Position numbers and translations under genes: made by a program
DNA from: an uncultured Nitrospiraceae bacterium
Lineage (GTDB): Bacteria > Nitrospirota > Thermodesulfovibrionia > Thermodesulfovibrionales > Dissulfurispiraceae
Assembly (NCBI GenBank): GCA_963705105.1
Contig: CAVPIW010000017.1
Span: 32,001-96,000 of the forward strand
DNA length: 64,000 nucleotides
Direction of reading: 5' to 3'
Part shown: one piece after another, positions 23,023-26,033 of the stretch
Position numbering within the stretch: position 1 is the stretch's first letter
How the letters are laid out: every line of letters begins with the position of its first letter
Notes under the pieces: model-generated
Database searches by the model: none
What the model was told of the DNA's origin: nothing
The model's input: only the letters and a program-made list of their open reading frames with translations

Positions 23023-23829
23023 ATGAAAACACGTTTGGCAGTGATGGTGATTTGCGCGATGGTCTGGGCCGTGTCCGCCGGTGCGGCGACGGGGGCCGGT
23101 CATGACGCCGGCTCTTCCTGCGCAGGATCGACGATCCCTGATCAGCCCGGATCGATCCTGCTCGCGCAGGGAAAACCCCTGAGCGGGAGTGTTCTCGAAC
23201 AGGCCTGCAGGGCCTATGCGGACCAGGGAATGAAGGACTCGCAGCAATGGGAACAGCGCAGGTGTCGCGAAAAGCTCAATATCGCGCCCCAGCTCTTCAC
23301 GACGGAATACAAATCCCACTACACGCGGTGCATGTCATCGGTTGGCACATCGATCGAGAGCGACAACGCCACGCGGCAGGACTATCTCAGGCGGTGCGGT
23401 GCGGGCTCGACGTCCGACCGTCCCACAGCCGTTCCCCCGCCGTCCACGTCCACTCCAACCGCAAAGCCCCCGACCCCTCCCCCTGCGACGGGGACCACGC
23501 CGGGAACGAGAACGCCCGGCGCCGACATCGGAAAGCCCGGCGCATGGGAGATAACGCTTCTCGACCTGAAGACCCTCAAGACCTACCGCTACGCATACTC
23601 GTTGACCTTCCGCGGGAACAATTTCGAGGGGGTCTATCTCGATCCGGGAAACAACAAAAGCTCCTTCAGCGGCTTCATATCCCCGGACGGGTCCCGGATC
23701 GAGTACAGGCAGCAGGACAACGACTACCAGGCGAACTTTGCCGGCAGAAAAACGGGGACGGGCAGGTTTGAAGGGGCGGTCTGCGATTCCAGGGGTAACC
23801 TCTTCACCTTTACGCTCAGGAAGAAATAG
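23023..23829 (+). CDS. Hypothetical secreted protein: Cys-containing N-domain, Pro/Thr linker, beta-rich C-domain
   Basis: GGAGG RBS, signal peptide, PPPSTSTPTAKPPTPPP linker. Confidence 0.75.
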   Translation: MKTRLAVMVICAMVWAVSAGAATGAGHDAGSSCAGSTIPDQPGSILLAQGKPLSGSVLEQACRAYADQGMKDSQQWEQRRCREKLNIAPQLFTTEYKSHYTRCMSSVGTSIESDNATRQDYLRRCGAGSTSDRPTAVPPPSTSTPTAKPPTPPPATGTTPGTRTPGADIGKPGAWEITLLDLKTLKTYRYAYSLTFRGNNFEGVYLDPGNNKSSFSGFISPDGSRIEYRQQDNDYQANFAGRKTGTGRFEGAVCDSRGNLFTFTLRKK

Positions 23830-25435
23830 GGGATTTCAGGAAACAGAAGGGATCGCGGTCGCTGAAGGCGTCGAGGCCGCAGCTTGACGTGACGGCAATG
23901 CAGCCGCCGCAGACGGGGCGGATCGCGCAGGAGCGGCATGCCGACGAACCGGAGCGGTAGCGCCGGGCGATCTCAGAATCGTAGATCTCGGTGAGACTCT
24001 GCTGAAAGGCGTTGCCGATCAGGGAAGGGAATTTCCTGCAGGCATGGACTTCGCCGTCCGGCAGGAGGGCGAAGAAGTTGAAGGCGGCGCCGCAGCCGTA
24101 TCCCGTGCACCCCCCAAAAGGTTCCATGCCCCTTTCATGATACTTGATCCCGATGAGGTTGTCCTTGATCCCGAGAACGGGCAAGCGCCGGCGAGCCTCG
24201 AGATACTCGTCAAGAAAAGCGGAAAAACGCTCCTGTGACGGCAGGCTGAGCCGTGCGCCTTCTCCGACGAGGGCAAGGCGGTTGAAGGTGAAGAGGTCCG
24301 TCAGTCCCTGGAGCCGCTCAGCGAGCGAAATGACCTGGTCGATGTTATCCCTCGTCAGGGTCAGCATCACCATGGAGTATATGCCGAGCTCACGCAGGAC
24401 CGGGAGAAACTCCATGACGCGGCGGTAGTGTCCCCGGCCCCTGATGAGGTCGTTCTGTTCCTCAAGTCCCTCGAGGCTCACCTGATAGTAGACGGGCCGG
24501 CGTATCGCGATGAGCGGCTCAATCTTCTCGCGGGGAGCGGGATTGCCGAGGATGGCGATCTCGAAGCCGAAGTCGGAGGCGGCCCTGTACACGTCGGTGA
24601 AATGGGGATACAGAAGGGGATTGCCGCCTGTAAAGGAAACCTGCGCCCAGACATGCTTGCTCTCGCAGAAAGAGCGGAGGTCGCCGAGGATGCGCAGCGC
24701 CGCATCCCTGCTGAGGGGAGAGCGGTTGCTCCTGTCATAACAATGCCTGCAATGGAGATCGCAAGCCTGGGTGATGTGCCACTGCAGCGTGAAGGAGGGG
24801 GATGTCATAAATTCATCGTATTGAGGCCCGAATCCGGAAAAGACGGCAGGGTCCCTCTGAATGAGGGACGGTGACGAGATGAGAATGGCCCTGCCTGCCG
24901 CCCGCTGAATGACAGCATCTATATGACCGACGGGAATGCCAGCTTCCCGCGCAACATCCCCGGCATCGATGCCCTCGACAACCATTTTAACCGCCAGGAG
25001 ATCCTCTTCAGTGGCGGCGCGGACAACGACGTCCCCTCCCGGGGTTTTCCAGACCATGACAAATTCTTCGCCGGCTTCAGGAACCCTGTCAATCCCCGTT
25101 GGAGCGACCAGCTCTGCCAGATGTTTCCAGGGCAATGTAAGGAGCCTGAGCGTCGGGTTCACATCGGTCTGACTGAGCCGGTCCGGAGGCGGAGATGCCT
25201 GCCTCACCGACGCAACGGTCCATTCCAGGCGGGCGAGACCGGCGAGATAGGCCGGAATTTTCCGGTCGTCCGGAAATTTCGCGAGAAAAGCGATCAGTTC
25301 TTCAGCATCCGCTCCGGCAGGACAGGTCAGAATTGTGTCTGACCGTATCGCAGCGGGTAGGAGGGAGAGAAGAACGGGGTAGACGGACTCGAGTGGCACG
25401 TCTGTGTTCGATGCCTGAGCGCATTGCCCTGTCAT
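23816..25435 (-). CDS. Radical SAM/SPASM peptide maturase, selenobiotic (SbtM-like) family
   Basis: LQWHITQACDLHCRHC (CxxxCxxC), TGGNP, SPASM cysteines GCTGYGCG...HACRK...CRSC..RPVCGGC...DPFC, ~210-aa N-terminal extension; adjacent UGA-rich peptide gene. Confidence 0.9.
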   Translation of the reverse strand: MTGQCAQASNTDVPLESVYPVLLSLLPAAIRSDTILTCPAGADAEELIAFLAKFPDDRKIPAYLAGLARLEWTVASVRQASPPPDRLSQTDVNPTLRLLTLPWKHLAELVAPTGIDRVPEAGEEFVMVWKTPGGDVVVRAATEEDLLAVKMVVEGIDAGDVAREAGIPVGHIDAVIQRAAGRAILISSPSLIQRDPAVFSGFGPQYDEFMTSPSFTLQWHITQACDLHCRHCYDRSNRSPLSRDAALRILGDLRSFCESKHVWAQVSFTGGNPLLYPHFTDVYRAASDFGFEIAILGNPAPREKIEPLIAIRRPVYYQVSLEGLEEQNDLIRGRGHYRRVMEFLPVLRELGIYSMVMLTLTRDNIDQVISLAERLQGLTDLFTFNRLALVGEGARLSLPSQERFSAFLDEYLEARRRLPVLGIKDNLIGIKYHERGMEPFGGCTGYGCGAAFNFFALLPDGEVHACRKFPSLIGNAFQQSLTEIYDSEIARRYRSGSSACRSCAIRPVCGGCIAVTSSCGLDAFSDRDPFCFLKSPISS

Positions 25436-25447
25436 TGTTATGAATAT

Positions 25448-25661
25448 ACCCTGTAGTTGTATAAAAAGGCGGGGCGAAACGCCTCAAAGCCTTGCTGAAG
25501 GCGACGATACGCCTCGTCAGCTTCGTGTTTCAGGATTCCACTCTTTGTGTCATCGACCATTGGCGTATAGTTCATCTCTCGTTTTGATATAGGTGTCGCC
25601 GCATCAAGGTTTTCGGCGCATACACCCCGCCTTTCCTGGGAGTGTGTTGCAACGATAAGGT
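25448..25661. mobile_element. Family A MITE-like element (L1+R2, 214 bp), TA at both ends
   Basis: TACCCTGTAGTTGTA...TGCAACGATAAGGTA; same length as 27932-28145 and 52948-53161. Confidence 0.85.
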
Positions 25662-25687
25662 ATACCTATGCCCGGACGATTTGTTTC

Positions 25688-25726
25688 GGGCGATGCCGCG
25701 GGCGGAATTCACCGGCGGCATCGCCC
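25688..25726. terminator. 12-bp GC stem-loop between precursor and maturase
   Basis: GGGCGATGCCGC...GCGGCATCGCCC; T tract only on the plus strand. Confidence 0.55.
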
Positions 25727-25776
25727 TCTTTTCCGTCTAAGACCCCCGTCTTTATCGATTGCAGAACGAAACGAAT

Positions 25777-25919
25777 CCGTGCTTCCAGCACGGTTACTTG
25801 GCGCCGCCTCAACCACTCTTGGCAGGCGGTTTCTCTTCGGTGGTGCCTCCAGCACCTTCCTTTTTCGCGCCTCAACCACTCTGGGCCGGTTTCTTCTCTT
25901 CAGTGGCGCTTCCAGCGCC
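25777..25919 (-). promoter_or_regulatory. Three SECIS-like hairpins (25919-25905, 25856-25842, 25793-25777)
   Basis: GGCGCT-GGA-AGCGCC, GGTGCT-GGA-GGCACC and CCGTGCT-GGA-AGCACGG, each starting exactly 15 nt after an in-frame UGA. Confidence 0.8.
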
Positions 25920-26033
25920 GTCTTTCTTGCCCGCTCAGGCCGACGAGCAGCCGTAGAGCCCGAGGGTCGTGCCGGCCAGAAGACTGGCAATGCCGATTCC
26001 GGCGAGGACCTTCTTGAGATGCTCCTTGTCCAT
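25794..26033 (-). CDS. Selenocysteine-containing RiPP precursor peptide (selenobiotic/SbtA-like), 79 aa, 3 Sec
   Basis: GGAGGTG RBS; MDKEHLKKVLAGIGIASLLAGTTLGLYGCSSAUAGKKDGAGSATEEKKPAQSGUGAKKEGAGGTTEEKPPAKSGUGGAK-TAA with U = TGA at codons 33, 54 and 75. Confidence 0.88.

Follow-up and report, generated by a model that had tools for sequence, protein, structure and literature searches.

We analysed a 64,000-nt window of contig CAVPIW010000017.1 (positions 32,001 to 96,000 of the forward strand; assembly GCA_963705105.1) from an uncultured Nitrospiraceae bacterium and examined within it a gene pair, sbtA and sbtM, that encodes a putative selenopeptide precursor and its maturase. Both genes and the features described for them lie on the minus strand, and positions are those of the window. 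The sbtA gene (25794..26033) is an 80-codon frame that, with TGA read as selenocysteine (Sec, U), gives 79 residues with Sec33, Sec54 and Sec75, followed by a TAA stop (25796-25794). By direct reading, its ATG at 26033 lies 5 nt downstream of the Shine-Dalgarno sequence GGAGGTG (26039..26045). The three TGA codons (25935..25937, 25872..25874 and 25809..25811) are spaced exactly 63 nt apart and place Sec in the contexts S-A-U-A, S-G-U-G and S-G-U-G, respectively. A repeat search of the gene found two 63-nt units with 76% identity and a 14-nt sub-repeat present three times, at spacings of 64 and 63 nt. The original prediction, made from the sequence alone, had described this ribosome-binding site, start codon and 63-nt period, the TGAs of codons 33, 54 and 75 and the TAA at 25794, and our re-reading reproduced each of them.

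Both proteins scored above the curated cut-offs of the family models for SbtA and SbtM, a pairing that the original prediction had proposed with a model search as its check. Residues 1 to 26 of SbtA matched the 27-position model TIGR04081 with 43.1 bits (cut-off, 30.5), and SbtM matched TIGR04082 over model positions 2 to 516 of 516 with 694.4 bits (cut-off, 350). In the protein collection, 3187 of 8000 scored candidates matched SbtM at an E value of ≤1e-30, many of them annotated as SbtM or as "selenobiotic family peptide radical SAM maturase," and the best hits other than the protein itself were 57 to 60% identical. The locus is very probably a two-gene SbtA/SbtM selenopeptide cassette whose UGAs are read as Sec, and the pair adds a member to a curated family of published chemistry; it is not a new family. 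We assembled 23 SbtA peptides, including two from the host genome; one has four Sec residues, 12 have three, six have two, three have one and one has none. Three is thus the mode and, with 13 of the 23 peptides having at least three, nothing unusual in this family. The protein collection contains SbtA in a 32-aa form only, just as the original prediction had expected of gene callers, and a word-based, and hence weak, search of it returned no full-length SbtA relatives of 43 to 139 aa. The sbtA frame is a real small gene that is normally miscalled.

Each TGA of sbtA is followed, 15 nt downstream, by a hairpin resembling a selenocysteine insertion sequence (SECIS). The three hairpins (25905..25919, 25842..25856 and 25777..25793) have 5 to 7 bp, are GC rich and carry a G-rich loop, and the second differs from the first by a compensatory C-G to U-A change. 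The third lies wholly 3' of the TAA and is therefore noncoding, which means that its conservation is at the RNA level and not due to the encoded peptide; a U-rich tract follows it, and it also has a terminator-like score. We collected 43 in-frame TGAs from 18 SbtA genes and aligned 39 of them after dropping L024_U60, L025_U60, L043_U35 and L046a_U35, each the first of a tandem pair with one joint hairpin. A helix of 6 to 7 pairs had 87.6% of its cells paired at the 39 sites (73.8% when shuffled) and a covariation score of 0.432 (0.185 when shuffled), and none of 500 shuffles was as high on either measure, although these sites are mutually related and the shuffle figures are therefore not probabilities. 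Shifting the 3' partner by 1 to 3 columns lowered the paired cells to 19 to 44%, and three helix pairs showed compensatory change on both sides, in 7 to 16 sequences. In the all-Cys paralogue L046b, no such hairpin follows the three Cys codons, where the folds were -3.3, -7.6 and -4.4 kcal/mol. An Rfam scan of positions 25400 to 26300 at an E value of ≤10 returned two chance matches, to a long noncoding RNA and to a microRNA family, and no SECIS or other family. The tandem UGAs, which lie 9 or 24 nt apart in L024 and L025 (2881-2931) and in L043 and L046 (first two TGAs), have their first UGA 23 or 38 nt from the joint hairpin, compared with the usual 14 to 15 nt.

The host genome (4.23 Mb, 99.4% complete) contains selA, selB, selD and a tRNA-Sec with the anticodon tca, the machinery that the original prediction presupposed. 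TGA ends 18 of the 29 ORFs (open reading frames) of at least 250 aa in the window, sbtM among them, and is the commonest stop there. It is not reassigned in this genome, in agreement with the earlier view that a Trp or Gly reading was unlikely. Translation of sbtA might nevertheless stop at the first UGA, as would suit both the commonness of TGA as a stop and the exact 32-residue product that gene callers give, leaving the downstream frame and the hairpins as tandem-repeat leftovers. The product would then be a signal peptide plus three residues past the lipobox Cys, followed by 47 further codons that are free of TAA and TAG. The relatives have the frame read through, and five of them (L031, L043, L060, L061 and the all-Cys L046b) have Cys at Sec-aligned positions, as the original prediction had looked for. 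These Cys replacements, the covarying hairpins that are missing where Cys replaces Sec (L046b) and the complete Sec machinery strongly disfavour a stop at the first UGA, which we consider extremely improbable. None of the refuting conditions that the original prediction had set was borne out.

Two further observations concern the decoding genes of this genome. The selD gene (G000:C11:79300-80208; L010) has one in-frame TGA, and selenophosphate synthetase SelD is itself, from its sequence, probably a selenoprotein. A tRNA of 96 nt that carries the Cys anticodon gca (G000:C10:176600-176691; L014 1497-1592, minus strand) scored 55.9 bits on the tRNA-Sec model, whose gathering score is 47, and has on one side a gene for a double-cubane-cluster reductase and on the other a tandem-rhodanese ORF weakly like a selenoprotein family. 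This tRNA may belong to the Sec-like tRNA-Cys species of the literature.

The next co-directional ORF, sbtM (23816..25435), encodes a 539-aa protein with Pfam Radical_SAM and SPASM domains, as had been noted originally, and we annotate it from TIGR04082, these domains and its AlphaFold model as a thio(seleno)oxazole radical S-adenosylmethionine (SAM)/SPASM maturase. The CxxxCxxC radical SAM cluster motif (C225, C229 and C232; 24740..24763) and the eight Cys residues of the SPASM region (443, 448, 466, 500, 503, 509, 512 and 531; 23843..24109) were invariant in 40 of 40 members. The model, built from the alignment of these members, had a mean predicted local distance difference test (pLDDT) score of 86.4, and the nearest solved folds to the whole protein were CteB, SuiB, SkfB, PqqE and anSME. 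The SbtA/SbtM system, formerly named the selenobiotic family, was reportedly characterised in vitro by Lewis et al. in 2021. According to a perspective from the laboratory that discovered the system, SbtM abstracts a hydrogen from the Cys beta-carbon, a Gly-Cys or Gly-Sec peptide loses 4 Da, and nuclear magnetic resonance together with a 304-nm band, red shifted by 9 nm with Sec, indicates a thio(seleno)oxazole; the Fe/S content suffices for three clusters (PMC9204691). This chemistry is restated in a review (PMC11002830), so the earlier statement that no chemistry had been settled is outdated. The published unit is also not the S-x-U-G/A core that had been proposed as the modified site but X-Sec, in which the carbonyl of the residue before Sec closes the ring (PMC9204691). 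Carried over from this work on another member, the window SbtM would form a thio(seleno)oxazole on X-Cys or X-Sec.

SbtM might instead modify some or none of the inserted Sec residues, in which case the lipopeptide would be a periplasmic selenol redox buffer or a peroxide or disulfide scavenger and no metal binder. The first site of the window SbtA is Ala-Sec, whereas the studied substrate is Gly-Sec, and the residue before Sec varies among the relatives (G, A, S or U); two of the three sites here, however, are the canonical S-G-U-G, and sbtM stands beside sbtA in all 20 related loci that have sbtA. The SbtA of a second pair in the same genome and that of L038 have a C-terminal Sec directly before the stop, as would fit a free selenol, and recall redox-active C-terminal Sec motifs. 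The cellular function of SbtM products is given as unknown in the perspective (PMC9204691), which leaves room for a selenol role, but thiooxazole peptides made by the MNIO route are reported to bind copper (PMC11626156, PMC12668002). We consider a peptide that acts through free selenols rather unlikely.

The first 28 residues of SbtA form a leader and signal peptide that runs into a lipobox Cys at position 29 (25947..26033). The leader has two Lys residues within its first seven positions, a hydrophobic stretch and the sequence L-Y-G-C, which matched a PROSITE-type lipobox pattern. The same arrangement occurs in seven of the 23 SbtA peptides (the window and L024, L025, L028, L059, L063 and L064), and in the remaining peptides the hydrophobic stretch ends in an A-x-A-like sequence or in G-x-S-G, with the first Sec directly after it. 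The first core Cys of L046b also matched the pattern, and we did not count it as a lipobox. The protein collection and the RNA-library contigs also include a strain variant with L-G-G-C, and the host genome has both lgt and lspA. By analogy with lipoproteins and with thiooxazole peptides, we infer that SbtA is exported and lipidated at Cys29 and has a metal-binding or redox role. Gly28-Cys29 is also a Gly-Cys unit.

The N-terminal domain of SbtM (residues 1 to 213; 24797..25435) consists of a helical DUF2063-like subdomain and a winged helix (strands 97 to 140 and helices 143 to 181) of the type of the recognition element (RRE) of peptides that are ribosomally made and posttranslationally modified (RiPPs). 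Modelled alone, it had a pLDDT of 84.2. Foldseek matched this domain to 3dee (NGO1945; E value of 2.9e-5) and to the TglHI entries 8hi7 (1.3e-3) and 8hci (2.2e-3), and these were the sole matches at an E value of ≤2.2e-3. A structure search independent of Foldseek also placed 3dee first (Z score of 12.8, 172 residues aligned, root mean square deviation of 5.0) and TglI (8hci_C) second (Z score of 10.2, 172 aligned). The next matches had Z scores of 5 to 7.4, covered residues 88 to 190 only and were the RREs of MibB, TbtB, lasso-peptide B1 proteins, TigE and NisB. The two top matches, far above the others, are partner proteins of MNIO enzymes, TglI being the partner of the MNIO TglH.

Sequence comparisons gave the same relationship. 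When the domain was compared by hhalign with DUF2063 proteins, six in number and all of this phylum, the match had a probability of 97.4% (E value of 9.7e-12) over 155 columns, with a common L-A-R-L-E-W motif, and one of the six is encoded in a DUF2282-MNIO-DUF2063-DoxX operon, which is the bufferin layout. Pfam DUF2063 was weakly matched in six of 40 SbtM members (best E value of 0.014) and NGO1945_C in four others of the 40 (best E value of 0.068). These results show that the N-terminal domain of SbtM is homologous, across the family, to the DUF2063+RRE partner proteins of MNIO enzymes. The kinship was absent from the literature searched, including the available portions of PMC12452194 and PMC12710340, and the primary SbtM paper may already describe the domain. 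We also compared the occurrence of SbtM and DUF2063 proteins in 201 genomes of the phylum for mutual exclusion (SbtM in 26, DUF2063 in seven, both in one) and set the comparison aside because kin do not count as independent samples and the counts are too low for a claim.

A complex prediction for the N-terminal domain and the 32-residue leader, both supplied as alignments, scored 0.59, compared with 0.02 for the best of three controls. Contacts agreed to at least 78% between runs, and the pLDDT of the partner was at least 68. The mark set for such predictions is passed by 116 of 157 solved complexes and by two of 215 mismatched pairs; scores of ≤0.60 held only 18 of the 157 solved complexes and both of the mismatched pairs that passed. 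Short SbtM forms of about 340 to 410 aa, which lack the DUF2063+RRE domain and cover model positions 195 to 516 only, occur in L036 and L040 and in G045, G054 and G063. We considered a 155-aa ORF upstream in L036 as a separate docking protein, and it gave no match (hhalign E value of 0.92); no suitable gene for separate docking adjoins sbtM in L036 or L040.

The sbtA and sbtM genes are separated by 358 nt on the same strand, which is not a tight operon junction and corrects the original description. Most of this gap is taken up by an interspersed repeat of about 215 bp (25445..25663, minus strand) that resembles a miniature inverted-repeat transposable element and stops some 12 nt short of the sbtM ATG. 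The genome has 40 more near-full-length copies of this repeat at 90 to 96% identity and 620 first-look candidates, and an alignment of 12 copies showed sharp borders and imperfect inverted ends. A 45-aa ORF (25438-25575) lies almost wholly within the repeat, with its last bases just past the repeat end. A second sbtA/sbtM pair is present on contig 12 (G000:C12:184426-186380; L049, L058 and L065). Its SbtM, which scored 698 bits, shares 54% identity with the window SbtM. Its SbtA carries Sec37 and Sec56 and, immediately ahead of TAG, a third TGA that a hairpin follows at 12 nt; the leader of this SbtA is A-x-A-like and lacks a lipobox.

This arrangement raises the possibility that the window cassette is decaying or uncoupled, with the repeat before the sbtM start impairing expression of that gene, and that SbtA either stays unmodified or depends in trans on the contig-12 SbtM. 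The gap is about 110 nt in the paralogous pair and about 6 to 130 nt in most relatives (the ORF starts are approximate), far shorter than the 358 nt here, the repeat reaches almost to the sbtM start, and hairpin 3 with its U-tract is terminator-like. Both window genes are nevertheless intact with all invariant residues, and the window SbtM scored as high as its paralogue. The 54% identity of the two SbtM proteins and their partners' different leader types (lipobox and A-x-A-like) suggest that each enzyme has its own substrate, although the presence of a second pair is also what service in trans would call for. An RNA-library contig also lies on sbtM. We regard a decaying or uncoupled cassette as improbable.

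Upstream of sbtA we found a sigma-70-like promoter, TTGACA-17 nt-TAGAAT with a TG element (26150..26178, minus strand), that has 11 of 12 consensus matches; the search returned this one site against 0.9 expected, and it is a consensus match only. A multicopy repeat ends at its -35 hexamer, and the interval from the purH-like gene to sbtA (about 26173-26452) is filled by other multicopy repeat pieces, the segments at query positions 110-172 and 308-383 having dozens of genome copies each. Contigs from RNA libraries (metatranscriptomes) of four runs in four studies cover sbtA (25765-26031, 25801-26111, 25674-26035 and 25730-25940), and the 311-nt contig at 25801-26111 has zero differences from the window. 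The one contig on sbtM (23882-24124) has two differences. Most of the gene has no contig over it, which is uninformative as to its expression. RNA contigs that match the 215-bp repeat run into unlike flanks, as expected for a multicopy element.

The related loci numbered 34, with 28 from a related-locus search and six from a genome search, and SbtA was found in 20 of them; the remaining 14 yielded none, and several of these have no sequence upstream. SbtM is present in six of the 40 nearest-relative genomes and in the 26 genomes, the host included, noted above for the phylum sample. We searched the flanks of 28 loci (27 relatives and the paralogous pair of the host) with Pfam, and among 121 flanking ORFs, sbtM excluded, no gene of any kind was common to the lineages, and no metal-related or transport gene was conserved beside the pair. 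One clade (L029, L030, L032, L043, L044, L046 and L047) keeps a RecQ-like helicase, a GFO/IDH/MocA oxidoreductase and an NADPH-dependent FMN reductase beside the pair, and L030 and L044 have an additional TPMT/TehB-like methyltransferase nearby. We did not take this synteny as functional evidence. At L034, L035 and L037, the start of sbtM is directly adjoined by a gene resembling SAM hydroxide adenosyltransferase, MFS and NosD-like genes come next, and the leader pattern found no SbtA.

Around the window pair, no accompanying transporter, protease or metal gene was found. The neighbours, which include a purH-like gene, an ammonium transporter, a sensor kinase with a sigma-54 regulator and an exosortase H set, were uninformative as functional clues. 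The purH-like ORF (26556-27863, minus strand) matches in the AICARFT part only, below the curated cut-offs (264.6 bits; cut-off, 402), and has an antisense ORF of equal length over it. For three co-directional ORFs of 198, 95 and 268 aa (22040-23829, plus strand), neither Pfam nor NCBIfam gave a match; the three run towards sbtM, and the final one shares 14 nt with the 3' end of that gene. Exosortase H (92.6 bits; cut-off, 86) and an associated membrane protein adjoin a DUF11/SdrD-B repeat surface protein of 1730 aa that is encoded on the other strand (29155-35447). A 175-aa ORF antisense to sbtA (25668-26195, plus strand) has no family match, overlaps sbtA and the repeat, and was taken as spurious.

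We propose that sbtA is translated through its three UGAs as Sec, each followed at 15 nt by a SelB-type hairpin, of which the third lies in the 3' untranslated region. SbtM would then dock the precursor in the cytoplasm via its N-terminal DUF2063+RRE-type domain, and its radical SAM/SPASM core would oxidise each X-Sec to a 5-selenooxazole, using two SAM and removing 4 Da per ring, as found in vitro for another family member. Export by the general secretory pathway, lipidation of Cys29 by Lgt and cleavage by LspA would probably follow and would leave a membrane-anchored product of about 51 residues that is rich in Lys, Glu and Gly and carries three selenium heterocycles. Its most likely role, tentatively and by analogy with the thiooxazole bufferins, would be soft-metal binding or redox buffering in the periplasm. 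With similar reserve, we suggest that SbtA/SbtM might be an anaerobic, selenium-using counterpart of the bufferin (BufA/BufB/BufC) metallophores, in which a lipid-anchored peptide with three selenooxazoles would bind soft metals at the membrane surface. One ancestral DUF2063+RRE module may have come to serve two unrelated catalysts, the O2-dependent MNIO and the O2-independent radical SAM enzyme, which would both form the same ring on precursors with signal peptides; here the homology is computed and the common function would be by analogy. Such a pairing would resemble others of an aerobic with an anaerobic enzyme, for example that of FGE with anSME.

Several points weigh against this proposal. 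The chemistry of the product, meaning the peptide, its selenium and its rings, is all carried over from another family member, and the first site is Ala-Sec-Ala and not the Gly-Cys or Gly-Sec studied, so this Sec may remain a free selenol. Modification of Gly28-Cys29 by SbtM would block cleavage by signal peptidase II, which makes these two fates of Cys29 mutually exclusive. The complex prediction lends weak support to docking of the leader on the SbtM N-terminal domain. The 215-bp repeat between the genes may uncouple or weaken sbtM expression, and RNA libraries can contain DNA, so the contigs on sbtA and sbtM attest presence and not level. No metal or transport gene is conserved beside the pair, which leaves analogy as the sole argument for the proposed role.

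Two of our results go beyond the known picture of the family: a subgroup has a lipoprotein-type leader, and the docking domain of SbtM is homologous to the MNIO partners. The leader, in the subgroup that includes the window SbtA, predicts where the product is located and how it is finished. The domain homology makes metal binding the first function to test, for the family as a whole and not for this locus specifically. These results make the question of product function, which is given as unknown in the perspective (PMC9204691), more testable. Genes like sbtA, with several UGAs and cut to 32 residues by standard callers, are undercounted in selenoprotein catalogues.

Compared with other SbtA/SbtM systems, the window pair has the features of the family: scores above both cut-offs, the leader, UGAs with hairpins, small residues around Sec, the CxxxCxxC and SPASM Cys residues and the two-gene layout. 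It differs from other members in the identity of its SbtM (57 to 60% at best), in the lipobox Cys of its leader, which seven of 23 peptides have, and in the Ala-Sec of its first site. It is also split by a multicopy repeat and accompanied by a second, divergent pair in the genome.

Another close comparison is with bufferins and other captophorins, which consist of a BufA precursor, the MNIO BufB and the DUF2063 partner BufC and share the ring type, 5-thiooxazole, of which SbtA would carry the selenium form (PMC11626156, PMC12668002, PMC12452194). Bufferin Cys residues are converted to 5-thiooxazoles by the MNIO with its DUF2063 partner, and the products, made with Sec-type signal peptides, bind excess periplasmic copper (PMC11626156). 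SbtA resembles these precursors in its N-terminal Sec-type signal peptide and in having no dedicated transporter or protease nearby, and its maturase has, as N-terminal domain, a homologue of the DUF2063+RRE recognition module. The catalyst of SbtM, in contrast, is a radical SAM/SPASM core and not an O2-dependent multi-iron enzyme, and the partner module is fused in SbtM but separate in bufferins. SbtA also uses Se for S and has an unstructured, low-complexity core, unlike the small folded protein that is reported as the bufferin core. No match to MNIO (DUF692, PF05114) was found in the 99.4%-complete host genome. With a radical SAM maturase and no MNIO, the window system is not a member of the bufferins or other captophorins, though it may work like one.

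DAG-RiPPs are a described type of RiPP whose precursors pass through the lipoprotein pathway (PMC13056109). SbtA resembles them in its lipobox signal peptide, and Lgt, LspA and N-acylation would finish its product and anchor it in the membrane. DAG-RiPPs, however, contain macrocycles and are products of ChrH-type MNIO enzymes (PMC13056109), whereas the lipidation of SbtA is predicted from its sequence. Among radical SAM enzymes, CteB (5wgg), SuiB (5v1s/5v1t) and anSME (4k36) are the best whole-protein folds for SbtM and have its three-cluster architecture, and the oxidation by SbtM at the Cys beta-carbon has been compared with anSME (PMC9204691). The N-terminal domain of CteB and SuiB is a plain RRE, whereas that of SbtM is a two-part DUF2063+RRE module. 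The products also differ, since CteB, SuiB and anSME form thioethers, a carbon-carbon link or formylglycine and SbtM forms an oxazole.

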